Shown here: positions 12,136-40,576 of the stretch, piece after piece | Position numbering within the stretch: the stretch's first letter is position 1 | How the letters are laid out: each line of letters opens with the position of its first letter | Assembly (NCBI RefSeq): GCF_051903065.1 | Contig: NZ_CP178438.1 | Strand: one strand, 5' to 3' | DNA: 64,000 nucleotides | DNA from: Escherichia coli | GTDB lineage: Bacteria; Pseudomonadota; Gammaproteobacteria; Enterobacterales; Enterobacteriaceae | Notes under the pieces: generated by a model | Told to the model about the DNA's origin: nothing | Databases searched by the model: none | What the model saw: the letters and a program-made list of their open reading frames with translations, nothing else | Translations under genes and position numbers: made by a program

Positions 12136-12498
12136 GGGGCTGATTCTGGATTCGACGGGATTTGCGAAACCCAAGGTGCATGCCGAGGGGCGGTTGGCCT
12201 CGTAAAAAGCCGCAAAAAATAGTCGCAAACGACGAAAACTACGCTTTAGCAGCTTAATAACCTGCTTAGAGCCCTCTCTCCCTAGCCTCCGCTCTTAGGA
12301 CGGGGATCAAGAGAGGTCAAACCCAAAAGAGATCGCGTGGAAGCCCTGCCTGGGGTTGAAGCGTTAAAACTTAATCAGGCTAGTTTGTTAGTGGCGTGTC
12401 CGTCCGCAGCTGGCAAGCGAATGTAAAGACTGACTAAGCATGTAGTACCGAGGATGTAGGAATTTCGGACGCGGGTTCAACTCCCGCCAGCTCCACCA
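12136..12498 (+). ncRNA. ssrA: tmRNA (SsrA), intact 363 nt
   Basis: Starts GGGGCTGATTCTGGATTCGACGGG, contains the tag-peptide reading frame region and ends ...GGTTCAACTCCCGCCAGCTCCACCA. Confidence 0.95.
12454..12498. repeat. Prophage attachment-site repeat, ssrA-proximal copy (45 bp)
   Basis: ATGTAGGAATTTCGGACGCGGGTTCAACTCCCGCCAGCTCCACCA is repeated exactly at 45935-45979. Confidence 0.9.
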
Positions 12499-19082: not shown

Positions 19083-20255
19083 TTACGCGCTGACCTGGCT
19101 GGAGAAATTCACCAGGTACTGATCGGTGATGCGCTGACGCAGCATCAGGTTTTCAAGTGGCGGCACTGGCGTGTAGTCGTAGTCGATGGTGAGTTTTCCG
19201 GCTTTCAGCGTGTCTTTGTCGTTCACCGACTCATCCAGCCAGCAATCACCACCAATGAGATAGCCCTGACTGACCAGGCTGCGCATTTTGGCGCGGATAC
19301 CCTCGATAATGTCGCGGGCCAGCGACGGATTCAGCGGTTTATCCACCGCCCACATGTGCGCTTCTGCCATCGTGTCCGTCAGCACCTGCGCCGTGCGGGT
19401 GTAGTTTTCGAAGGCAAAGAGCGGGTCATCACTCAGGCAGCGGGAACCCCAGAAGCGAAAACCGTCTTTGCGGATAAGGGTGGTGACGTCGTTCTGGTTC
19501 AGCAGTCCCGCATCGGTTGCCGGGTCCTGCAGATCCCAGAACACATCAGCAGAAATTCCGGTGACACCGTTAACGCCCACGTTGGACAGGCTTTTGTGCC
19601 ATCCGGTCTGCTCGTCAATTTTGGCGCGCAGACCAAGCGCACGGGCGGTGGCATAAGCCGTTGCTTCGGCATTCAGCACCGTGTCCCAGCCAGTAAAGTC
19701 GGGCCAGATCAGCATTCCTTCGCGCTGGCTGAAGTTTTCACGGTAAGTGATCGCCTCCTGTACCGTCTTGCAGCCATACGCTGACAGGTAGGCAAACCCA
19801 CGCAGGCTTTGCGCCACGCTCAGCAACTCAGTAGCAACGGCTTTGTTATCGTGACCTGGCACGCCGAGAATGCGCGGTTTAACGCCGAGCTGTGTCTGGG
19901 CAGATAACAGGGCTTTCATGCCTGTTTTTTTACCTTCAGCAGTCACTGCGCCGATGATATTGGTCGTGGTTTCTTCTTCCGTTTCACCCTGCGGCACACG
20001 CACAACAACGGTCACTGGTTTTGCCTGGTCAGCGATGGCATCCAGCGAACGGGCCAGCGTGCCGGACTCACCCGCTTTACCGCTGGCAGTCAGCACATCA
20101 GTGATCAGCACGGGTTTATTAAGAGGAAACATTTTTGCATCGGCATCATCGCCCGTGCAGACCATACCCACGATGGCGGTGCTCACCGTGGTAATGGATC
20201 GGGTGCCTTCGTTGACTTCAGCAACGCGCACCCCGTGGTGGTAATCCTGAGCCAT
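19083..20255 (-). CDS. Contractile tail sheath protein FI
   Basis: 390-aa ORF, size and position of P2 FI. Confidence 0.9.
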
Positions 20256-20397
20256 AGTGGCGAACCTCCTGATTGGATTAGGCTTCGCCCTATGTTGAAG
20301 TGATTGTGCCTGACAAACAGCTAAGCACAGTTGTGTCGTTATTCACACAAAATGACGGTATTTGTCCGCTTACAGGAAAAATCAAAATAATACTGAC

Positions 20398-20964
20398 TCA
20401 GGGCGATTCATTGCTCTCATTCGCCGGAAATTTTCTATAAATGGTAGAAACGCCCACATCAAAAATCAGTGCAATACGCTGTCTTGATTCTCCGGCCTCG
20501 AGTAAACGTCCAATCTGTGCCCACTGTTCGGTGGTCAACTTAGGACGGCGTCCACCTACTCTGCCTTTGGCACGAGCTGCAGCCAGCCCTGCTCTGGTAC
20601 GTTCAACTATCAGTTCACGTTCCATTTCAGCCAGAGCCCCCATGACGTGAAAAAAGAAACGGCCCATTGGGGTACTGGTATCAATACTGTCAGTCAGGCT
20701 TCGGAAATTCACACCACGCTGGCGCAACTCTTCTATCAGCGTAACAAGATGCCGCATACTGCGCCCCAGTCTATCCAGCTTCCAGACAACCAGCGTGTCT
20801 CCTGCCGATAGTGTCCTGAGCAGTTTTTTAAGCCCCGGTCTGTCGGACTTAGTGCCACTGATTTTATCCTCAAAAATCCGCTCACATCCCGCGCAGTTCA
20901 GTGCATTACGTTGCAAATCGGTGTTCTGGTCATTTGTTGACACGCGTACATAGCCAATAAGCAT
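20398..20964 (-). CDS. Serine DNA invertase (Hin/Gin/Cin/Pin family)
   Basis: Resolvase N-terminal catalytic motif (GYVRVSTNDQ) and C-terminal HTH; start placed at MLIGYVRVS; adjacent to the invertible tail-fibre segment. Confidence 0.9.
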   Translation of the reverse strand: MLIGYVRVSTNDQNTDLQRNALNCAGCERIFEDKISGTKSDRPGLKKLLRTLSAGDTLVVWKLDRLGRSMRHLVTLIEELRQRGVNFRSLTDSIDTSTPMGRFFFHVMGALAEMERELIVERTRAGLAAARAKGRVGGRRPKLTTEQWAQIGRLLEAGESRQRIALIFDVGVSTIYRKFPANESNESP

Positions 20965-20991
20965 GATCAATCCCCTGAATAAAAACCGGGG

Positions 20992-21468
20992 ATGATGCCA
21001 GTTAGCCATTATCTCTGCATTTTCTTAAACGTTGGTTTGGGAGAAGGTTCGGCATTACCCGTTGGTGTGCCTGTTCCGTGGCCTTCTGCAATACCGCCTA
21101 CTGGCTGGCTGAAATGTAACGGTGCGGCTTTTTCTGCCGTTGAATATCCTAAACTGGCGAGGGTTTACCCGACAAATAAATTACCTGATTTACGCGGTGA
21201 GTTTATTCGTGGCTGGGATGATGGGCGTGGAGTGGATAGTGGGCGCGCGTTATTATCAACTCAAACAGATGAATTTAAATCACATAGTCATTATTTCGAA
21301 AGAACATGGGCACAAACTGGATTTGATACAACAGGTGGATATTATCTTTTAGCCGCTGATGTTTCTGGCTCAGTAAATCAACAGAGATCCGATAGCACTA
21401 ACTCGGTGGGGGGGAGAGAATCTCGCCCTCGTAATATTGCATTTAACTATATTGTGAGAGCTGTGTAA
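20992..21468 (+). CDS. Alternative tail-fibre C-terminal variable segment (silent orientation)
   Basis: Open frame without its own start context; encodes ...LNVGLGEG... paralleling ...LAYLGLGEA... in H at the crossover site; followed by a tail-fibre assembly gene. Confidence 0.65.
   Translation: MMPVSHYLCIFLNVGLGEGSALPVGVPVPWPSAIPPTGWLKCNGAAFSAVEYPKLARVYPTNKLPDLRGEFIRGWDDGRGVDSGRALLSTQTDEFKSHSHYFERTWAQTGFDTTGGYYLLAADVSGSVNQQRSDSTNSVGGRESRPRNIAFNYIVRAV
21022..21045. repeat. Invertase crossover site (gix/cix-like), invertase-proximal
   Basis: TTCTTAAACGTTGGTTTGGGAGAA; its reverse complement matches 22555-22578 over about 17 nt. Confidence 0.7.
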
Positions 21469-22073
21469 TGGATAATGCTGTATTAAATAGCGAACATATT
21501 GCTACGAAGGCTGGAAATGTTACTGTTTATAACTTTGACGGTGAAACGCGAGAGTATATTTCCCCATCTATTGAATATATTGCCGTTGGTGTCGGTATTC
21601 CGGCATATTCATGTTTAGATGCTCCTGCCACACGTAAAGATGGTTATGCTATTTGCCGTTCTGCAGGCTTAAACTCATGGGAATATATACCAGACCATCG
21701 CAGTGAAATTGTCTATAGCACTGAAACAGGAGAATCAAAAGAAATCACAGCTCTGGGGGATTACCCTGAAAATACAACCATTATCGCCCCATTAACGCCA
21801 TACGATAAATGGGATGGTGAGAAATGGGTGACGGATACCGAGGCACAGCGTAGCGCCGCAGTAGACGCGGCAGAAGCACAGCGCCAGTCGCTGATTGATG
21901 CTGCTATGGCTTCCATTAGCCTGCTTCAACTGAAATTACAGGCCGGACGGAAGCTGACGCAAGCAGAAACAACCCGACTAAACGCCGTGCTGGATTACAT
22001 TGACGCGGTGATGGCAACGGATACCAGCAACGCGCCGGGGGTTATCTGGCCAGTTCCACCTGAGATGGTTTAA
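21468..22073 (+). CDS. Tail-fibre assembly chaperone for the alternative segment
   Basis: 201-aa ORF directly coupled to the alternative fibre segment inside the invertible region. Confidence 0.7.
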   Translation: MDNAVLNSEHIATKAGNVTVYNFDGETREYISPSIEYIAVGVGIPAYSCLDAPATRKDGYAICRSAGLNSWEYIPDHRSEIVYSTETGESKEITALGDYPENTTIIAPLTPYDKWDGEKWVTDTEAQRSAAVDAAEAQRQSLIDAAMASISLLQLKLQAGRKLTQAETTRLNAVLDYIDAVMATDTSNAPGVIWPVPPEMV

Positions 22074-22329
22074 TCTCAATCAGAATGGGTTCGCCCTTCT
22101 CGTTAACAGATATTTCCATTCCTTCAGGGATTTCAGATGCAGTAAAAAACCAGTTATCTTCTGGTAATTCAACAGCCCCGGTCACGTCATGAAGACCGGG
22201 GATTACTTCAGTCAAAGTAACAGGATTAAACAGGCGCACAATAAACTCTCCAAGAAAAAGCACTTGTTGATGGTCTTCCGTCGTACATCTGGCAGCGGAC
22301 ATAAAAACCGGTATTAGTGACCTGGTCAT
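22042..22329 (-). CDS. Possible short or degenerate tail-fibre assembly protein for the expressed orientation
   Basis: ORF downstream of H on the same strand, but overlapping the H 3' end in another frame; true start unclear. Confidence 0.3.
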   Translation of the reverse strand: MTRSLIPVFMSAARCTTEDHQQVLFLGEFIVRLFNPVTLTEVIPGLHDVTGAVELPEDNWFFTASEIPEGMEISVNEKGEPILIEIKPSQVELAR

Positions 22330-23617
22330 CCACGATCATTGAAACGTGAACGTTATTAGATGTGCTCCCGTAATCCGTTCTTATTCTTTCCGCTATGCTG
22401 ATAAAACGTGAAAGCTTAGGTAGCGCAATTGGATAAACGACTTTAGCCAGTCCATTATCATTAGAACCACCCGTTCCAAAGACTTCTATTGCACCATCTG
22501 ACCAGCGTATCCATGCACCATTGGCATTAGCTCCTCGTTGAATGACATATCTGGCTTCTCCCAAACCAAGGTATGCGAGAAGACCAGCTACATCCTTTCC
22601 ACTCAAATTGGTAAGCGTATTGTCCAGCGGTTGTTTACCTGCCAGCGCATTAAGCATTGTCGTGGCAAAGTTCGGATCATTCCCCAGTGCCGCCGCCAGT
22701 TCGTTCAGTGTATCCAGTGCCGCAGGTGCAGAACCCACCATTGCTGCAATCGCTGATTTCACAAAAGCCGTGGTGGCAATCTGTGTATTGTTGACCGACT
22801 GTGCCGCAGTAGGTGCGGTTGGCGTTCCGGTGAGTGCCGGACTCGACAGCGGCGCTTTCAGTGCCAGTGCATTGTTAATGGTGGTACTGAATTTCGGATC
22901 ATTGTTAATGGCTGCGGCTATTTCTTTCAGCGTGTCCAGCGTGGCTGGCGCACCATTAATAAGAGCCGTCAGAGCCGCCTGAACAAACGCGGTGGTCGCA
23001 ATCTGCGTGGTGTTATTCCCTGCTGCTGGCGTTGGCGCTTTGGGTGTCCCGGTAAACGTCGGACTTTCTTTGGGTGCATACTGTGAATGCGGGTCCGGTG
23101 CGGCAAGATGTTTTGCCATCTGATCATCCGCGTACACCTTCAGCTCCAGTGCCTTGTCATCCACATACTTGCGGGTTGCCAGCACTACAGCAGGGTCGAT
23201 TTTCAGGGTGATATTGTCCGTGCTGCTGGTAATCAGCACCATGCGCACGGTCTGAGTGCGCCCGCTACCTTCAGCCAGTTGCGGCTTATAGCTTTCCGGG
23301 CAGTTGCCCACGGCAATCAATGCCTCGGACTCATCAAACAGGCCCACTTCACGAATCCACCAACCGCCCTCGTTTTCAGGGATCACCTGTTCGGCAATAA
23401 TCTGGCTGCTGTTCTGCGGGTCGATATAGAGCATATTCAGCGCAGCCCGGCGTTTCTCATTTACCAGTGCAGTCTGCTTTGAGTCTGGCGTTGGCAATAC
23501 TCCGCCGCCATCGCCGACCGCCATATGGGTAATTTTTAGCGGCACACCGAGCGCGGCGGCGCTGGCAAGTTTCGCCGCGCCAATATCCGTCAGCAGGGTA
23601 TAAAATTTTGTGCTCAT
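22226..23617 (-). CDS. Tail fibre protein H (constant N-terminal part plus currently expressed variable C-terminus)
   Basis: 463-aa ORF with internal roughly 56-aa tandem repeat (NTTQIATTAFV...). Confidence 0.88.
   Translation of the reverse strand: MSTKFYTLLTDIGAAKLASAAALGVPLKITHMAVGDGGGVLPTPDSKQTALVNEKRRAALNMLYIDPQNSSQIIAEQVIPENEGGWWIREVGLFDESEALIAVGNCPESYKPQLAEGSGRTQTVRMVLITSSTDNITLKIDPAVVLATRKYVDDKALELKVYADDQMAKHLAAPDPHSQYAPKESPTFTGTPKAPTPAAGNNTTQIATTAFVQAALTALINGAPATLDTLKEIAAAINNDPKFSTTINNALALKAPLSSPALTGTPTAPTAAQSVNNTQIATTAFVKSAIAAMVGSAPAALDTLNELAAALGNDPNFATTMLNALAGKQPLDNTLTNLSGKDVAGLLAYLGLGEARYVIQRGANANGAWIRWSDGAIEVFGTGGSNDNGLAKVVYPIALPKLSRFISIAERIRTDYGSTSNNVHVSMIVDDQVTNTGFYVRCQMYDGRPSTSAFSWRVYCAPV
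22555..22578. repeat. Invertase crossover site inside tail-fibre gene H
   Basis: TTCTCCCAAACCAAGGTATGCGAG; inverted-repeat partner of 21022-21045; coincides with the LGLGE coding position of H. Confidence 0.65.
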
Positions 23618-24219
23618 GGATTCACTCTCATTGTGTCAATAACATGGACCGCCCCGCCTTCATGCGCGGTGCCGCCAGAAATAATTGTTTCGTTGATATA
23701 CGGATAGATCGTGATTTCTTCGCCAAGATAGCTGGCGGCTCCCACCCAATGCGGGCCGCTGGTCTGCAGATTGATGGACATGCCGATCATGTGGCGGCTA
23801 CATGGTTTGGCATCGCTTATCAGTCGCTCAAGTTCCAGATAGGTATCTTCAGTGATGCCCTGGTCCTGCACGCCGATATCCAGGCGAAACGTGCCCGGAG
23901 CCTCTCCGGTCTGCCACCACTCAATAATGCGGATCAGGAATCCGAACGGTTCCACCACCCGCCGCACGGCACTGGTGGTTCCTTTATGCTGATGAATATA
24001 AAAAGCATCCTTCACTACCTGGCGTTTGACGCTTTCTGTCCAGCCCTCGTCCCAGCGATCCACAGAGAACGCCCAGGCGAGATAAGGCAGGAAGCTGACC
24101 GGGCAGGTAGCCGGATTCCACAAGTCACGCAGCGGCACCTGCAGATCAGAAATCCCGCTACAGGTTTGCGCCAGTCGGCGCTCCAGTGAAGTTGAACCCG
24201 GTGGCAGCAGACTATTCAT
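23614..24219 (-). CDS. Baseplate protein I
   Basis: 201-aa ORF at the P2 I position, coupled to J and H. Confidence 0.8.
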   Translation of the reverse strand: MNSLLPPGSTSLERRLAQTCSGISDLQVPLRDLWNPATCPVSFLPYLAWAFSVDRWDEGWTESVKRQVVKDAFYIHQHKGTTSAVRRVVEPFGFLIRIIEWWQTGEAPGTFRLDIGVQDQGITEDTYLELERLISDAKPCSRHMIGMSINLQTSGPHWVGAASYLGEEITIYPYINETIISGGTAHEGGAVHVIDTMRVNP

Positions 24220-31683: not shown

Positions 31684-33450
31684 ATGAACACCACACTGAC
31701 ACCCGCAGATCTCGATCCCCGTCGGCAGGCCATGCTGCTGTACTTTCAGGGATACCGCGTCGCCCGCATTGCTGAAATGCTAGGCGAGAAAGTTGCAACC
31801 GTTCACAGCTGGAAAAAACGCGACAAGTGGGGTGACTATGGGCCGCTGGATCAGATGCAGCTCACCACCGCCGCACGCTACTGCCAGCTCATTATGAAGG
31901 AGCACAAAGAAGGGAAAGATTTCAAAGAGATTGACCTGCTGGCGCGCCAGTCGGAGCGCCACGCGCGGATCGGCAAGTTTAACAATGGCGGCAACGAAGC
32001 CGACTTAAACCCTAACGTCGCCAACCGCAACAAAGGCCCACGCCGTCAGCCGGAAAAGAATGTTTTCACCGATGAACAGATTGAGAAGCTGGAAGAAATC
32101 TTCCATTCCTCCATGTTCAACTACCAGCGCCACTGGTGGGAAGCCGGAAAAACCAACCGCATCCGCAACCTGCTGAAGTCACGCCAGATCGGCGCAACCT
32201 TCTATTTTGCCCGTGAAGCCCTGATTGACGCCCTGCTGACCGGACGTAACCAGATTTTCCTTTCCGCCAGCAAGGCACAGGCCCACGTCTTTAAGCAGTA
32301 CATCATCGACTTCGCCAAAGAAGTGGAGGTGGAGCTGAAAGGTGATCCGATGGTGCTTCCTAACGGTGCCACGCTTTACTTCCTCGGCACCAATGCCCGC
32401 ACTGCCCAGAGTTATCACGGCAACCTGTATCTGGATGAATATTTCTGGATACCGAAATTTCAGGAGCTGCGCAAAGTGGCTTCCGGTATGGCTATTCACA
32501 AAAAATGGCGACAAACCTATTTTTCCACGCCATCCAGCCTGACACACAGTGCTTATCCGTTCTGGTCCGGTGCGCTGTTCAACCGTGGACGCAACAAAGC
32601 CGACAAGGTGGACATCGACCTGTCCCACAGCAATCTGGCCCCCGGCCTGCTGTGCGCAGACGGGCAATACCGCCAGATAGTCACCGTGGAAGATGCGGTG
32701 CGCGGCGGCTGTAACCTGTTCGACCTCGACCAGCTACGCATGGAGTACAGCCCGGACGAATACCAGAACCTGCTGATGTGCGAGTTCGTGGACGATCTCG
32801 CGTCCGTGTTCCCGCTCAGCGAACTGCAGGCGTGCATGGTGGACAGTTGGGAAGTCTGGACCGACTTTCATGCACTGGCCCTGCGCCCGTTTGGCTGGCG
32901 CGAGGTGTGGATCGGTTATGACCCGGCAAAAGGTACGCAGAACGGCGACAGCGCCGGATGCGTGGTGGTGGCACCGCCAGCCGTGCCAGGCGGTAAGTTT
33001 CGCATTCTTGAGCGTCACCAGTGGCGCGGGATGGACTTCCGCGCCCAGGCTGACGCCATCAAAAAACTGACCGAACAGTACAACGTGACCTATATCGGCA
33101 TCGACTCGACAGGTGTCGGTCACGGGGTTTACGAGAACGTGAAAGCGTTCTTTCCTGCCGTCCGGGAGTTTGTCTACAACCCCAACGTTAAAAACGCCCT
33201 GGTACTCAAAGCCTACGACATTATCAGTCACCGTCGTCTGGAGTTTGACGCCGGACACACCGACATAGCGCAGTCATTTATGGCAATCCGTCGCGCCACC
33301 ACCGCCAGTGGCAACCGCCCGACCTATGAAGCCAGCCGCAGCGAAGAAGCCAGCCACGCCGATCTGGCCTGGGCAACGATGCACGCACTGTTTAACGAAC
33401 CGCTGCAGGGCGAGTCCGCCAATACCAGCAATATTGTGGAGATTTTTTGA
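31684..33450 (+). CDS. Terminase ATPase (large) subunit P
   Basis: 588-aa ORF; divergent from O and coupled to Q. Confidence 0.9.
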   Translation: MNTTLTPADLDPRRQAMLLYFQGYRVARIAEMLGEKVATVHSWKKRDKWGDYGPLDQMQLTTAARYCQLIMKEHKEGKDFKEIDLLARQSERHARIGKFNNGGNEADLNPNVANRNKGPRRQPEKNVFTDEQIEKLEEIFHSSMFNYQRHWWEAGKTNRIRNLLKSRQIGATFYFAREALIDALLTGRNQIFLSASKAQAHVFKQYIIDFAKEVEVELKGDPMVLPNGATLYFLGTNARTAQSYHGNLYLDEYFWIPKFQELRKVASGMAIHKKWRQTYFSTPSSLTHSAYPFWSGALFNRGRNKADKVDIDLSHSNLAPGLLCADGQYRQIVTVEDAVRGGCNLFDLDQLRMEYSPDEYQNLLMCEFVDDLASVFPLSELQACMVDSWEVWTDFHALALRPFGWREVWIGYDPAKGTQNGDSAGCVVVAPPAVPGGKFRILERHQWRGMDFRAQADAIKKLTEQYNVTYIGIDSTGVGHGVYENVKAFFPAVREFVYNPNVKNALVLKAYDIISHRRLEFDAGHTDIAQSFMAIRRATTASGNRPTYEASRSEEASHADLAWATMHALFNEPLQGESANTSNIVEIF

Positions 33451-34475
33451 TGGGAAAGAGTAAGAAAAACCGCGCTGCGGCGACGAATCAGCTCAAGCAT
33501 AAAAGCCAAACTTCAGCCGAAGCATTCAGCTTCGGTGATCCCATTCCAGTACTTGACCGCCGCGAACTGCTGGACTATGTGGAATGCGTACAGACGGATC
33601 GCTGGTATGAGCCACCCGTAAGTTTTGACGGACTGGCGCGAACATTCCGCGCCGCCGTTCACCACAGCTCACCGATTGCAGTGAAATGCAACATTCTGAC
33701 CAGTACCTACATCCCTCACCCGCTGCTCAGCCAGCAGGCTTTTTCGCGTTTTGTGCAGGACTATCTGGTTTTTGGTAACGCCTACCTGGAGAAACGCACG
33801 AACCGGTTCGGTGAAGTGATCGCCATTGAGCCTGCTCTGGCAAAATACACCCGACGCGGGTTAGACCTTGATACCTACTGGTTTGTGCAATACGGTATGA
33901 CAACCCAGCCGTATCAGTTCACGAAAGGCAACATTTTTCATCTGATGGAACCTGACATTAACCAGGAGATCTACGGCCTGCCCAGCTATCTTTCTGCTAT
34001 TCCGTCCGCCCTGCTCAACGAGTCCGCCACGCTGTTCCGCCGCAAGTATTACATTAACGGCAGCCATGCAGGTTTCATCATGTACATGACCGATGCCGCG
34101 CAGAACCAGGAGGATGTGAACAACCTCCGCAACGCGATGAAAAGCGCCAAAGGTCCAGGCAATTTCCGCAACCTGTTTATGTACTCGCCTAACGGCAAAA
34201 AAGACGGACTTCAGATCATTCCTCTGTCTGAAGTCGCGGCGAAGGATGAGTTTTTAAACATCAAGAACGTGAGCCGGGACGATATGATGGCTGCGCATCG
34301 TGTTCCGCCACAGATGATGGGGATCATGCCGAATAATGTTGGGGGGTTTGGGGATGTGGAGAAGGCCAGCCGCGTGTTTGTCCGAAATGAATTGATGCCG
34401 CTTCAAAAATGTCTTGAAGGTATCAATTGTTGGCTAGATGCAGATGTAATAAAGTTTAACCAATACATTTTGTAA
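33447..34475 (+). CDS. Portal (capsid vertex) protein Q
   Basis: 342-aa ORF, size and position of P2 Q. Confidence 0.9.
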   Translation: MMGKSKKNRAAATNQLKHKSQTSAEAFSFGDPIPVLDRRELLDYVECVQTDRWYEPPVSFDGLARTFRAAVHHSSPIAVKCNILTSTYIPHPLLSQQAFSRFVQDYLVFGNAYLEKRTNRFGEVIAIEPALAKYTRRGLDLDTYWFVQYGMTTQPYQFTKGNIFHLMEPDINQEIYGLPSYLSAIPSALLNESATLFRRKYYINGSHAGFIMYMTDAAQNQEDVNNLRNAMKSAKGPGNFRNLFMYSPNGKKDGLQIIPLSEVAAKDEFLNIKNVSRDDMMAAHRVPPQMMGIMPNNVGGFGDVEKASRVFVRNELMPLQKCLEGINCWLDADVIKFNQYIL

Positions 34476-34483
34476 ATTCCTTC

Positions 34484-34511
34484 GGTAAAAGGCCGCTATG
34501 CGGCCTTTTTT
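34484..34511. terminator. Bidirectional terminator between Q and the cargo operon
   Basis: AAAAGGCCGC-TAT-GCGGCCTTTTTT hairpin between convergent gene ends. Confidence 0.8.
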
Positions 34512-35202
34512 AATTTGCGTCATCATTTTTTTTATTTTCTAAAGACTCAATATACCCTCGCAAATTAAATTCTTTATTTTCTCTGAGTTTAGGTCCTTCT
34601 TTAGTATCTGAGCCTCGTTGCTCACGTAAACTTTTATTCAAAGCATCGATCAATTCTTGTCTAGAGATTTCCGTTGCAATTAACCCATCAAAATATCTCT
34701 TCATTTTTCTCGCGCTCTCGGTTACTTTAACAACTTCAAAACCAAGGCAGAGCAAATAAATTAGCGTTGTTATTGTAAATCCAGTATCTACAGAGATAAA
34801 ATAGCCAATATCGAGCACTTTCTTAAGTGATTCCAAGGGCATAACCATGCACAATAAAACCAAAAGCAAACCAGTGCCAAGATATAAATAAGTCATTGAG
34901 TTTCTTTCAATCAGCTTGAAGTACTCATCTCTCTGACCTTCAAAGCTAGCAACAATCTTAGGGGGTGTTTTTTTTGGAAGATCGAGGTCTCGAATTTTAT
35001 CCTGAAGATCTACGTATCTTTTAATAAGTAAACCGACTATGGCAGCAGTGATTAATGAAAGCGTTTTCGATAAAATATTGCCCATTTCCACGAGCACATT
35101 TAATTTATAATTAATCAGATATACTACACTCGATGCCAATACTCCACTTAAAATGGATAATATTATATAAAACGCATATCGCTCCACTCGATTTTTAATC
35201 AT
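34510..35202 (-). CDS. Cargo protein B: predicted 4-TM membrane protein with charged C-terminal tail
   Basis: 230-aa ORF with four hydrophobic helices (approx. residues 9-30, 43-60, 96-114, 133-149); AT-rich; start overlaps the stop of the upstream ORF (ATGA). Confidence 0.7.
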   Translation of the reverse strand: MIKNRVERYAFYIILSILSGVLASSVVYLINYKLNVLVEMGNILSKTLSLITAAIVGLLIKRYVDLQDKIRDLDLPKKTPPKIVASFEGQRDEYFKLIERNSMTYLYLGTGLLLVLLCMVMPLESLKKVLDIGYFISVDTGFTITTLIYLLCLGFEVVKVTESARKMKRYFDGLIATEISRQELIDALNKSLREQRGSDTKEGPKLRENKEFNLRGYIESLENKKNDDAN

Positions 35203-36230
35203 GGATTTATTACCCCATCAGCTAACAATCTGAGCAACCACTCTACCATTTCCTCACAAACGCTATCAATAACAGGCATCCCATTATTATATTCAATATT
35301 GACGGTGTCTTTTATTTGTATTTCGTCATTTCTTAAAATACCTGCGCCTTTTAACTCTATGGTTAATGCTTCATCACGGTTATCGATAAGAGCCTCCGTA
35401 ATTTTCCTTAAAATATTTTGTTCCTCATCATTAGCTTTATATTTATACCCTATAGAAACATCTATCGTTAAATGTTCTCGAGACATGTCAACTGAAACAT
35501 CCTGTGATGCATTGTGTTTACGCAACACATCAACTCTGTGCTCACCGATAAGAGATTTCAATAATTCACTAGCGACATCATCTACTCCATCTCCATAAGA
35601 GGATAGAGGCAGCTTCAAGCTTACATTTTTTACATTGCTACGCATCAGCAATTCATTAGTCAAACGTAAATTTCCTGCTTGTAATATAATAAAGTTATCA
35701 ACATCAACCCTTAGATTATCCTTCAAAATGTAATTAATATAATTTTCAATATCTTTAATTCTAATTGCACGACTTTGCAATATTATTACATGATTTTTGA
35801 CAATCCCGATATATGCAACACTATCTAAATATTCTTTCGGAACACTTCCAGTAAGCTTTAATGCTTCATAAGCCAATCGATTTTTTTTATATTCTGAAAC
35901 ATCAAAAACTGGCACACTATTCCCTGGCTCAATATAAACTATTTCACCAAAAAATATACCATTCCGTTCGAAGGAATCAGATAAAACCATGTGCGCGTGG
36001 CTGCTAACACAAGGGTCACTATCTCCAGTTTCAAGATAGTAAATTCTGTCCTCAACGGTTGGAAACTTGTGATTAACAATTTCGTTCATACGATTCTGCA
36101 AATCACTTGCTAAAAGAGCATCCTTTTTAGGAAGCATTACTGCGTGTCGATAGTGTAACGCTTTAACTTTTGAGGGATTACTGGCCATGAAACATCCATT
36201 ATTAATCTTAGATTTAGTGATATGGAACAA
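35199..36230 (-). CDS. Cargo protein A: soluble protein of unknown function
   Basis: 343-aa ORF (start may be the internal MASNPSK); AT-rich; no motif recognised; translationally coupled to the 4-TM ORF. Confidence 0.7.
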   Translation of the reverse strand: MFHITKSKINNGCFMASNPSKVKALHYRHAVMLPKKDALLASDLQNRMNEIVNHKFPTVEDRIYYLETGDSDPCVSSHAHMVLSDSFERNGIFFGEIVYIEPGNSVPVFDVSEYKKNRLAYEALKLTGSVPKEYLDSVAYIGIVKNHVIILQSRAIRIKDIENYINYILKDNLRVDVDNFIILQAGNLRLTNELLMRSNVKNVSLKLPLSSYGDGVDDVASELLKSLIGEHRVDVLRKHNASQDVSVDMSREHLTIDVSIGYKYKANDEEQNILRKITEALIDNRDEALTIELKGAGILRNDEIQIKDTVNIEYNNGMPVIDSVCEEMVEWLLRLLADGVINP

Positions 36231-36498: not shown

Positions 36499-36804
36499 TT
36501 AATGCAGCCAGCTGTCGTCTTCCCACACCTTCTGCATAATTTTCATCACTTGTTTTCTTTCTTCGTCCAGTTGCAGTCCGGTCAGTTCCACACCGTTAGA
36601 GCTACCTTTGCGGATACGAATTACCGTTTTGGGATACAGGGGGCGCAGATTGCGGTAAAGCTCGGATTCAAGGGCGTCCAGTGTAGACTGGCTAATCTTC
36701 TGCTCTTTATCGATCATTATTTCAATGCGCATAAAAGTCACCTCAGCTGATGACATCCATTGAGCGGTTGTATTCGTGGGTTCTGATTTTTGCCATGAGT
36801 TCAT
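36499..36804 (-). CDS. DinI-family protein (Tum/DinI-like, SOS module)
   Basis: C-terminal part MRIEIMIDKEQK...LDALESELYRNLRPLYP...QKVWEDDSW resembles DinI; true start may be the internal Met. Confidence 0.65.
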   Translation of the reverse strand: MNSWQKSEPTNTTAQWMSSAEVTFMRIEIMIDKEQKISQSTLDALESELYRNLRPLYPKTVIRIRKGSSNGVELTGLQLDEERKQVMKIMQKVWEDDSWLH

Positions 36805-37083: not shown

Positions 37084-39498
37084 TTAATACAGGTTTCGCC
37101 ACTTATCATCTTCCTGCAAACGCTGGTTCCGATAGAAGATACGCAGGCCTGCTCCTGACGGAATACTGCCACCGCGAAGGAGTAAATCGACCTCTTTCTC
37201 GCTGCCATCAAATCCTCTGGACTTCAGTTCATAGACGAGCTGCTGTCGCTGATGATCTGTAATTCGCTGTTTGTAGTCTTTACGCCGTTTCGGCTTAACC
37301 AGGCGTAACCTTGCTGCCAGTTCCCGGCGCTCTTTTTTGCTCATACTGTGCAGATAATCGTGCAACTCCTTGTCATCCATGCGGGTAATATCCGTTCTGG
37401 TGTCCCCATCAGCTGATTTATCTTTCTCCTGTTGGTTCAAATTTTCAGCAAGGGGACAGTTATTGCCACGAGTCCAAGGGGCGCAAGCGCCCTGGTCGGC
37501 TACCGCCTCCTGAACGTCAACGGCTTTACGAACCATTTTCCACTTCACTGCATGAGTGCAGATCTTGCCCTCTGCAATGGGTGACCAGATGCCATAAATA
37601 CGAATGCCGTGATCGCCATAGGCGGTCGGCTCTTCGTTAATTTCATAAGCAGTTCTGATGAGGTGATATTTGCGGGGAACCAGTACGCCACCCTGCTTCA
37701 TGATGTAAGTGGCAAAACAACCAGCATCAGCAGCAGCCAGGATGGCATCAAGGCGCGGGTTATCCAGTACCGGCGCACCTGCTTTTTTGTCGCCCTGTTG
37801 CCTTGCCGCCTGACCAGCCAGCAATCGCAGTTCACGGTAAGCCTGACGCCCCGGAATACCAAAGAAGCGGAATTGCTGAACACGATGCAGAGACGCCCAG
37901 GCATTAACGTATTCAGCGTTATCACGCAGGGATTTACCCGTTTCCTTGCTGATCTCGCCAGCCAGACCACGCCCGTCAATGTTCTTACTAATGTATTTCG
38001 CAATGTAGCTTGTCGGCGTTCCTTTGCGCGGGTTTATCAGCTCAGACTTAAAGCGTGGCCCCGTGTTATTGCCCAGCTCCTCGCGGTCTTCACGGATGGC
38101 AAACTTACGCAACAATGCAGTAATGGCGCGGCGGTCTTTTTTGCGCATGAAACACAACAGGTGCCAGTGAACTGTGCCGTCATGATGCGGCTCAGCCACC
38201 CGCACGCCATACCAGCGCAACCCGGCTTTGTGCATAGCCTTACGAAATGCAGCAAACATGCCGACCAGATAATCGCTGCTTTGTCTTACTGTCGCGTTGG
38301 TCCAGGTCGGGTTTGGCCTGCCGTTATTTAGCGTGGAATGGAAACGTGACGGACAGGTGATGGTGTAGAAAACGGCGCAGTCACCACGCATTTCCGCGAT
38401 AAGCTCCAGGCCTTTAACACAGGCCATCATCTCGTTGCGGCGATGCGCCGGGTTGCTGCTGCTGGCGTTTACCACATCCTCCATGTTCAGCGTGTCGCCG
38501 TCTTCGTTCACCAGTTCATGAGAACGGAAAAACTCCAGCGACTTACGGCGCTGCTCACGTTTATGCATCACGGCTTCATAGCTAACATAGGGAGATGCTT
38601 TTTTGCTGACCAGGCAGACAGCACGCAACTGCTCTTCCCGCAATTCGCAACGCATCTTCCATAATTTCCGATACCACCAGTCGGCGCACAGCATACGCGC
38701 CAGCGAACCCGGAATGAGTTCATAAGGCACAGGTTTGCGGCGGTTTCTTTTCCGGCGGAGTTGCTCAAACGCAGGCGGTATGACATCCAGTCGCAGGGTT
38801 TCTGCAGCCACCTTTTCCCATGTCTTGCGGATTTCTTCTGGCTTAACATCATCGGAGGCGTACAAATCACCACAAGCGGCATCAAGACACATGCTCATAT
38901 GCGCAGCGACAAGGGTAGACAGGCGTTTCACCTGATCCTGACTCATTTCAGGCAGGATCAGCAGACCGTCCAGCCCCTCATGGCTTGCCATAAAACGAAA
39001 AGATGCAGATAGCTGGCTGTCGCGTACATGCTCCAGTCGTTCCAGACATGGCTTAATCGTCTCACGCAAATAGCGGGAATAAGCCTTTGGCCTGCCCATG
39101 CTGCTGAAATATTCAATACGTTGCATCAGCGGCTTGCTGATATGGGAAGGCTGGGCGTTGACGTCAGCCAGAATGACCATGTCTGGATTAAAACGCTGCT
39201 GCTCATGCGCCATCTTTGCCCGGCTAATGAGCTTATCCTGCTCCATTTCGCGTTGGACAGGATCACGGGATTCATTAAAGAAATAATGCTCCCAGACCTG
39301 ATCACTCAGTGCCTCGCGGCGCAGTTGTTCCTGCTCGTTATCGGTAGCGTACAGAGTGATCAGGTTTGAAAGCGCAGAAACCGGCGCAACTTCCGCCGGG
39401 TCCAGATAAGGGTTAATGGCCTTTTTCGGGCTGTTCCATGAGAACGCTGCGGCAGCCTCGTTAAAGCCGCAGCAGTTGTTCATATCGGCATGACTCAT
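37084..39498 (-). CDS. Replication initiation endonuclease A (rolling-circle, HUH-type)
   Basis: 804-aa ORF with HxH motif (GTVHWHLL); P2 gene A position. Confidence 0.88.
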
Positions 39499-40352
39499 GC
39501 ACGTACTCCGTACACGGCAGAACTATCCACGCCACGCGAATAATCAAATCCCACCCAGCAGCGCGGCCCGGAAACAGCAATGATTTCTGTTGCTGATTTA
39601 CCCTCGCCAGCTGCCACACCGATGCTGCGTTTTACCTTGATATAGTGGTGAATAAAATTGCGATACAGCGAACGGATCAGGGATGTGTCACTGTTAGAAA
39701 CAATGACCGGATGTCCTTCTGATGACCGATGTTCAAGAACGGATGCCAGGTGATACTGATCATCTTCAGTGAAACCATCAGTGTGATAGCCGGAAAACGT
39801 ACCGTCATACGGCGGATCGCAATACACCACATCCCCCGCCTTCAACATCGCCAGCGTTTCATCAAAGCTGGCGCAGATAAACGTTGCTCGCTGGGCTTTT
39901 TCTGCAAATGCGCGAATTTCTTTTTCAGGGAAATACGGATTTTTATAATTACCGTAGGGAATGTTGAAATGCCCGCTCTTGTTATAGCGACATAAACCAC
40001 GGTAACCGTGACGATTGAGATACAGGAAATATACCGCTTTCATGAAATCAGTAATTTCAGTTGAGTAATTAAACTCCTGCCTTATGTTGTAATAAGCCAC
40101 CTCCCTGTTTGCGATCTCAAATAAAACTCTGGCGCGAGATATAAACGATTCACAATCAGCAGCAACCTTTTTATAGAGGTTGATTAAATCAGGATTAATA
40201 TCCGCAACAAGATAGCTGGGGTACTCCGTCTCCATCATCACTGCACAGGAACCCGCGAAAGGTTCAACCAGTCGCGGGCCAGCAGGAAGGTGTTTTTTCA
40301 GTTCGGACATAATTGCGGTTTTATTTCCCGCCCATTTCAGGATGGTGCTCAT
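39495..40352 (-). CDS. DNA adenine methyltransferase (Dam-like orphan MTase)
   Basis: KWAGNK and DPPY motifs; stop overlaps the A start. Confidence 0.85.
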
Positions 40353-40576
40353 ACAGCACCTCCGTTGTAATGTTTGCCTTTCAGCTCTGCGATTTCCTGA
40401 CAGGTAATGCAAAGCTGCACTCCAGGAATGGCGCGGCGGCGTGCTGGCGGAATTGGCACTTCACATTCAATGCAAAGCACGCGAGACACGCCCGGTGTTT
40501 TGGCACGGGCAGCACGGATATGGCGCTGGCGTTCTTCTTCAACGCGCTGCTGTACGAGATCCATTGCATCAGCCAT
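40349..40576 (-). CDS. TraR/DksA-family C4 zinc-finger protein
   Basis: 75-aa ORF with CIECEVPIP...CITCQ four-Cys motif. Confidence 0.7.
   Translation of the reverse strand: MADAMDLVQQRVEEERQRHIRAARAKTPGVSRVLCIECEVPIPPARRRAIPGVQLCITCQEIAELKGKHYNGGAV

Follow-up and report, generated by a model that had tools for sequence, protein, structure and literature searches.

DNA inversion that exchanges tail-fibre ends has been described in P2-like prophages of Escherichia coli. Two such prophages of enteropathogenic E. coli (EPEC) E2348/69 flip in clonal cultures, as seen by sequencing and PCR (Goldberg et al. 2014, PMC4272514); one is a two-state system, and the other has three repeats and four states (PMC4272514). 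The Z/fun hotspot of P2 'often' encodes a DNA invertase with inverted adjacent tail-fibre genes (bioRxiv 10.1101/2024.10.15.618418), and the related systems Fels-2 Fin and carotovoricin Er are cited within PMC4272514. Here we analysed a comparable locus in a 64,000-nucleotide (nt) stretch of E. coli DNA (RefSeq assembly GCF_051903065.1, contig NZ_CP178438.1), the whole of which is called the window below. The locus comprises a DNA invertase gene, two inverted recombination sites and two alternative ends for the tail-fibre gene H. Very probably it functions as a switch between two states by site-specific DNA inversion, of the same type as Mu Gin, P1 Cin and e14 Pin, and it belongs to a complete P2-like prophage at ssrA. 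Such a switch is already known from publications on P2-like prophages of E. coli and on the Z/fun hotspot, and nothing about it is new in principle; since the module also occurs in hundreds of E. coli genomes, it must be regarded as ordinary.

The features of the locus are as follows, with lengths in base pairs (bp) or amino acids (aa).

20398–20964, minus strand: DNA invertase gene, 188 aa, of the Gin/Cin/Pin/Hin small serine recombinases (phrog_125 'DNA invertase', E 7e-101)
20880–20942, strand not assigned: putative recombinational enhancer, two Fis-motif matches 48 bp apart (motif matches only)
21020–21045, minus strand: recombination site L, 26 bp, TTCTCCCAAACC-AA-CGTTTAAGAAAA as read on that strand
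21034–21468, plus strand: silent alternative fibre C-terminus, a collar-type tip with 140 variable residues after GLGE (phrog_523 'tail collar fiber protein', E 4e-70)
21468–22073, plus strand: canonical tail-fibre assembly protein Tfa, 201 aa, for the silent collar tip (phrog_105 'tail fiber assembly', E 2.5e-92)
22042–22239, minus strand: 65-aa open reading frame (ORF) with a GTG start, of a family beginning MRLFNP... (phrog_5400, E 3.5e-22)
22226–23617, minus strand: fibre gene H in its present state, 463 aa (Pfam Phage_tail_fib N-terminal domain, E 8e-64)
22556–22581, plus strand: recombination site R, 26 bp, TTCTCCCAAACC-AA-GGTATGCGAGAA, inside the H codons A-Y-L-G-L-G-E

The locus shares with the EPEC and other P2-like loci the phage family and genomic slot, a Hin-homologous invertase, inverted repeats and alternative fibre carboxy-termini (PMC4272514; 10.1101/2024.10.15.618418). 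Mu resembles it in having a colinear invertase, 26-bp sites, a site at the gixR position and a putative Fis pair at the same positions. The layout of the Mu G segment is also the same, with a constant fibre N-terminus outside and two tail-to-tail cassettes of tip plus chaperone inside. Mu differs in the length of its segment (~3 kb, against 1.5 kb in the window) and in its core dinucleotide (GA, against AA); furthermore, one of the partner genes in the window is the non-canonical 65-aa ORF, and the element is P2-like rather than Mu-like. The closest classical invertase is P1 Cin. P1 C and e14 P/Pin follow the same logic of fibre-tip swapping, although the phage backbone of P1 is different. Fels-2 of Salmonella, whose Fin invertase was reportedly studied by Kutsukake et al. 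in 2006, is likewise a P2-like prophage at ssrA with a Hin-family invertase beside its tail-fibre genes. Fin cross-acts on the flagellar H segment; no such role is implied for the enzyme in the window. Nearest among isolated phages, 500465-1, KP12 and Kp4845-2 have recombination sites that are identical to those of the window or 1–2 bases off. Their second cassette combines another gp53-like tip with a full 147-aa Tfa, whereas the window carries a different tip allele and the 65-aa ORF.

The strongest inverted repeat in the interval 20256–23700 pairs 21020–21046 with 22555–22581 (27 nt, 81% complementary) and holds an exact 15-bp core, CTTCTCCCAAACCAA. Dinucleotide shuffling of this interval yielded no exact inverted repeat of at least 15 bp in 200 trials, the largest being 14. 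The two sites lie in inverted orientation and are built of pseudo-dyad half-sites, with identical inner halves (TTCTCCCAAACC) and the same central AA. These half-sites resemble those of Mu gix (TTCCTGTAAACC and TTATCCAAAACC; full Mu gix, TTCCTGTAAACC-GA-GGTTTTGGATAA), and an alignment of the regions preceding the invertase genes shows site L to be colinear with Mu gixR. On the minus strand one copy encodes (L/V)GLGE within H, and on the plus strand the other does so within the start-less fibre C-terminus. A first, sequence-only reading of this DNA had proposed two inverted sites at an LGLGE coding position, and both were found within a few bases of where it had placed them, the exact shared core being 15 bp. 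The 64-kb window contains two copies of the site only, unlike the three-repeat EPEC locus, which rules out a multi-site shufflon.

The sequence-only reading had also placed a Hin/Gin-family invertase between the sheath gene FI and the fibre genes; the gene is there, and its product is Gin-like. Residues 1–184 align without gaps to residues 1–184 of Gin (Mu Gin structures 3UJ3/4M6F, E 1e-92), and Hin's DNA-binding domain (1HCR) matches residues 141–183, the C-terminal helix-turn-helix. Identity of the invertase to Mu Gin is 73–75% (74.6% by tblastn); the tblastn values for P1 Cin and for the invertases of isolated Peduoviridae are 79.1% and 98–99%. The ORF as called covers 20398–21009 (203 aa) and begins 15 codons upstream of the likely start. 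The ATG at 20964 (MLIGYVRVST) is the most likely start and is also the one from which the Prokaryotic Genome Annotation Pipeline (PGAP) annotates homologues; the extra codons at 20965–21009 are an artefact of ORF calling. The catalytic Ser9 (VRVSTNDQ), whose loss the sequence-only reading had named as a sign of an inactive enzyme, is present, together with R7, R42, R65 and R68. Residues H106 and M114 are wild-type. Changes at these two positions, Hin H107Y and Gin M114V, are associated with Fis-independent activity, and the Gin crystal constructs carry a change at position 114. The basic helix-B triad K46, K47 and R50 and the Fis-contact patch Q150/R153/L154 are kept as well (Gin numbering). 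Both elements (in Hin, K47, R/K48 and K/R51 for the triad; Q151, R154 and L155 for the patch) are conserved in invertases that depend on Fis and an enhancer and are not conserved in resolvases (McLean et al., PMC3798978). Comparison with three E. coli homologues gave a proportion of nonsynonymous differences (pN) of 0.002–0.007 and of synonymous differences (pS) of 0.12–0.18, which indicates strong purifying selection on the invertase.

Matches to the degenerate Fis motif KNNYRNNWNNYRNNM fall at nt 23–37 and 71–85 of the invertase coding sequence, the same coding positions as in Mu gin. They place a putative enhancer near the start of the invertase coding sequence, with one motif at 20928–20942 and the other at 20880–20894. 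The centre of the proximal match is ~98 bp from the centre of site L; the hin enhancer lies ~100 bp from its site (PMC3798978). Inspection by eye gave a weak promoter candidate for the invertase, TTCTCC-15 nt-GAAAAT, which overlaps site L and lines up with the Mu sequence TTCCTG-15 nt-GATAAT. A terminator-like hairpin with a T run (20984–21003, minus strand) also separates site L from the start of the invertase. Its stem is weak, with 6 pairs and an 8-nt loop; such a hairpin might protect the invertase gene against transcription running on from the late fibre operon.

The crossover centres enclose a segment of 1,536 bp, in which two tip cassettes stand tail to tail. As now oriented, H is composed of constant residues 1–350, the shared GLGE at 351–354 and a gp53-like variable tip at 355–463 (22226–22555). 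The constant part is 97–98.6% identical to H of the Peduoviridae 500465-1, KP12 and Kp4845-2. Pfam Gp53-like_C matches the expressed tip weakly (E 0.11), and PGAP labels a protein of related E. coli modules 'gp53-like domain-containing protein'. The silent collar tip on the opposite strand is without an in-frame start codon having a ribosome-binding site. Its match reaches the end of profile phrog_3100, and a conserved collar (~75 aa) and a conserved C-terminal RPRNIAFNYIVRA motif frame its hypervariable middle. A '158-aa phage tail protein' ORF called at 20992–21468 on the plus strand (MMPVSHYL...) corresponds to this silent cassette; its equivalent is labelled 'phage tail protein' in RefSeq homologues, and it too is an ORF-calling artefact. 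The 201-aa Tfa that follows has 83–85% identity to its counterparts in phages 500465-1 and KP12, and its C-terminal domain aligns with Mu U.

Inversion was simulated by taking the reverse complement of 21032–22569. The 463-aa H then became an in-frame H' of 494 aa ending in the collar tip. Fused forms of both states are annotated in E. coli genomes, for instance as 'phage tail protein' genes of 1392, 1560 or 1635 nt. The tip folds of the two states, collar type and gp53-like, are unrelated, and NCBIfam has no family for any of the four fibre and chaperone proteins. An alignment of the tips with Mu S and S' had been suggested by the sequence-only reading, but neither tip showed detectable similarity to them: BLASTP against Mu S gave E 0.6, and tblastn against Mu 29.5–36.7 kb gave nothing at E 1e-3. 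The likeness to Mu is therefore one of mechanism and not of cassette content.

Both orientations were found in nature. The window configuration and the simulated inverted one (3.4 kb each) were searched against 5,426 complete E. coli genomes at a coverage of at least 80%. The window orientation matched in 92 genomes and the inverted one in 126, so that the module occurs in at least 218 of the 5,426, at roughly 91–94% nucleotide identity. About 5% of the query was uncovered in the E. coli matches because, of four collar-tip alleles compared, that of the window has the least length, with 144 aa where the others have ~153–195 aa. Three pairs of sister isolates differ in orientation. Strains 64 and 61 are 100% identical over 9.5 kb except for the exact inverted block; DG341-1 and DG343-1 follow the same pattern; and M11957 and M00057 are identical over 6.5 kb except for the inverted block. 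The breakpoints of all three pairs lie inside the shared TTGGTTTGGGAGAAG (15 bp). Strains 64/61 and M11957/M00057 carry the 26-bp sites of the window exactly, and the DG pair is one base off in the outer half of site R. The invertases of these pairs are 1–3 residues from that of the window. Base-identical pairs that differ in orientation imply that flipping is recent and frequent; they are strong indirect evidence that the module is active in nature, and activity in the strain of the window would be expected by extension. These inversions, together with the invertase sequence, the anatomy of the sites and the in-frame simulated fusion, bear out the earlier proposal of a Mu G / P1 C-style switch of the H C-terminus in the Z/fun slot. 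Because the H product depends on the orientation of the segment, assemblies of one clone can differ here without real divergence. In E. coli W, KO11FL and a record labelled DH5alpha, the homologous module is interrupted by an IS3-family transposase, and the switch may thus be disabled in those genomes.

By analogy with the classical systems, invertase dimers would bind the two inverted 26-bp sites, whose centres are separated by 1,536 bp. Fis of the host, on which the reaction would depend, would occupy the enhancer early in the invertase coding sequence, at ~98 and 146 bp from site L, giving rise to the invertasome. All four strands would be cut at the central AA/TT, one half would rotate by 180 degrees and the ends would be rejoined. 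The late operon (V-W-J-I-H) is read on the minus strand. As H residues 1–350 lie outside the segment, each flip would change the cassette that is read. The present state would yield the gp53-like tip (H, 463 aa) with the 65-aa ORF product, and the other state the collar tip (H', 494 aa) with the 201-aa Tfa. Induced particles would then carry one of two receptor-binding tips, and the prophage would hedge its host range. Fibre inversion in Mu and P1 changes host range, and by analogy the two states of this prophage may differ in the same way.

Several observations weigh against such a switch being fully functional. The enhancer assignment rests on degenerate, weak motif matches. A consensus scan recognised no sigma-70-like promoter upstream of the invertase. 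The evidence for flipping comes from assemblies of sister isolates and not from the window's own strain. The expressed tip, at more than 35% identity, was found in no isolated phage of the phage collection, and the 65-aa ORF is without the conserved C-terminal ~80 residues of the 147-aa Tfa.

The last two points would suit a switch that works but has one dead-end orientation, in which the 65-aa ORF is a truncated Tfa and only the collar/Tfa state is infectious. MAFFT aligns the 65-aa ORF, at 25–30% identity, with roughly the first 68 residues of the 147-aa Tfa that 500465-1 and KP12 encode, and phrog_5400 is matched over positions 1–66 of 145 only. The short form, however, is the norm of its family. 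The homologues number 141, nearly all of 57–66 aa, in at least eight genera (E. coli, E. marmotae, Enterobacter, Salmonella, Kosakonia, Cronobacter, Yersinia, Hafnia, Citrobacter and others), and they share an invariant core, MRLFNP...WFF...G.P, with variable tails. Despite 17% nucleotide divergence from the homologue of strain 64 (83% identity), the ORF keeps its reading frame and its length, and its pN/pS of 0.30 is similar to the 0.25–0.33 of the neighbouring Tfa; the gp53-like tip itself is at 0.06–0.22. The pairing of tip and mini-ORF recurs in Peduovirus S164, where the tip is 35% identical and the mini-ORF behind it 68%. The GTG start at 22239, also the choice of PGAP, has GGAG 8 nt upstream and gives an overlap of 14 nt with the end of H, like that of translationally coupled genes. 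Among the best, though weak, fold matches of the 65-aa model is a 60-aa 'tail fiber assembly protein' of Pantoea phage LIMEzero. A dead-end gp53-like orientation is therefore unlikely. The sequence-only reading had described the chaperone of the present orientation as short and overlapping H, and had suggested that one orientation may be degenerate. The shortness holds; the 104-nt overlap belongs to a 95-aa call and arose because the ORF caller took the first possible start, and degeneracy is not supported, given the conservation of the 65-aa family across Enterobacterales.

We concluded that the 65-aa ORF encodes a real, conserved small protein, which is probably a minimal fibre-assembly or accessory factor. 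In Tfa the conserved C-terminal domain mediates trimerisation and the variable N-terminal domain binds the fibre, as summarised in PMC9608196. The alignment of the 65-aa ORF to the Tfa N-domain by hhalign was weak (probability 8%, E 0.004), and no Pfam family matched it. Its AlphaFold (AF2) model is a small beta-rich domain with a predicted local distance difference test (pLDDT) score of 85. A Foldseek search of this model against the PDB gave nothing at E <=0.001, with Mu Tfa (5YVQ) not among the matches listed; matches in BFVD were marginal, the LIMEzero protein being the best named one (E 0.16, probability 0.85). The MRLFNP... protein might tentatively be viewed as a distinct, minimal single-domain partner of gp53-like tips, either a chaperone without the canonical helical trimerisation domain of Tfa or a small tip-bound accessory protein or adhesin.

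The missing promoter would fit a module that is a frozen relic in this strain, with an invertase no longer expressed or active and with orientation differences that are old. The invertase is intact, however, and differs from that of M11957/M00057, whose prophages differ by the inversion only, by the single change E183K in the C-terminal tail. The three independent base-identical pairs differ in orientation at sites that are exactly those of the window in two cases and one base off in site R in the third, which makes a relic very improbable. Inversion by RecA-dependent homologous recombination between the short repeats, with the recombinase gene as unrelated cargo, is scarcely credible. The arms do share an exact 15-bp repeat, but RecA requires far longer repeats to recombine them efficiently. 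In anatomy (26 bp, pseudo-dyad) and in position the repeats are like gix/cix sites, they adjoin a Gin orthologue, and the breakpoints are exact in three independent pairs.

The two-state switch thus remains the preferred reading, and its setting is a complete prophage. The landmarks outside the switch are given below.

12136–12498: ssrA, the transfer-messenger RNA (tmRNA) gene
12473–12498 and 45954–45979: attachment (att) repeats, an exact 26-bp direct repeat equal to the last 26 bases of ssrA
19083–20255: sheath gene FI

The window is E. coli chromosome, and its recN-smpB-ssrA flank matches several complete E. coli genomes at 100% identity. The att repeats bound a P2-like (Peduoviridae) prophage of 33.5 kb, and the intact ssrA is abutted by its D/ogr end rather than by its integrase end. 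The ORF map and family matches follow the P2 gene order (D-U-T-E-FII-FI / H-I-J-W-V / lysis / capsid / P-Q / A / int), and homologous loci are annotated with the same order and an accessory slot between the fibre genes and FI. Constant parts of the prophage are 96–98% identical to isolated Peduoviridae such as 500465-1 (Wadgaonvirus) and KP12. The invertase gene, between FI and H, occupies the slot of fun(Z), which in P2 lies directly upstream of the pF promoter and FI. A TGT-N12-ACA box at 20332–20349 is ~85 bp before the FI start, and its P2 equivalent is at ~83 bp. A tailocin or domesticated remnant is ruled out by the terminase, portal, capsid, replication and integrase genes and by the intact att repeats.

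The prophage also carries possible cargo. A low-GC island (GC 0.38) at 34510–36230 on the minus strand lies exactly in the old/tin hotspot of P2, between the portal gene Q (33447–34475) and the replication gene A (37084–39498). It holds two overlapping ORFs, of 343 aa (35199–36230) and of 230 aa (34510–35202), the latter with long hydrophobic stretches. Searches of Pfam, NCBIfam and PADLOC found nothing for either ORF, and the sole match, to the 343-aa ORF, is phrog_3482, a family of unknown function. We regard the pair as candidate uncharacterised anti-phage cargo. An anti-phage dCTP deaminase is encoded at 43955–45712 on the minus strand (NF041025, 420 bits with a cutoff of 400; PADLOC dCTPase, E 2e-146), in a stretch of GC 0.34 within the prophage, between the integrase (42928–43941) and the att repeat at 45954–45979. 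Further minus-strand genes of the prophage encode a Dam-family adenine methyltransferase (39495–40412; TIGR00571, 318 bits) and a DinI-like protein (36499–36804; phrog_189, E 1e-30). Just outside the att repeat at 45954–45979, the minus strand at 46140–49280 encodes an autotransporter of 1046 aa that has a beta-barrel domain as well as AIDA-I/Ag43-like repeats (TIGR01414, 333 bits).

For the biology of P2-like prophages, a switch of this kind would double the receptor repertoire of the prophage, and it is relevant to host-range prediction and to the engineering of P2-type phages and tailocins. The sole mildly novel thread is the 65-aa partner, namely how a gp53-like tip assembles without the canonical Tfa domain. 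If the tentative view of this protein is true, it would represent a second class of tail-fibre assembly factor, hidden as 'hypothetical protein' in many P2-like prophages of Enterobacterales.

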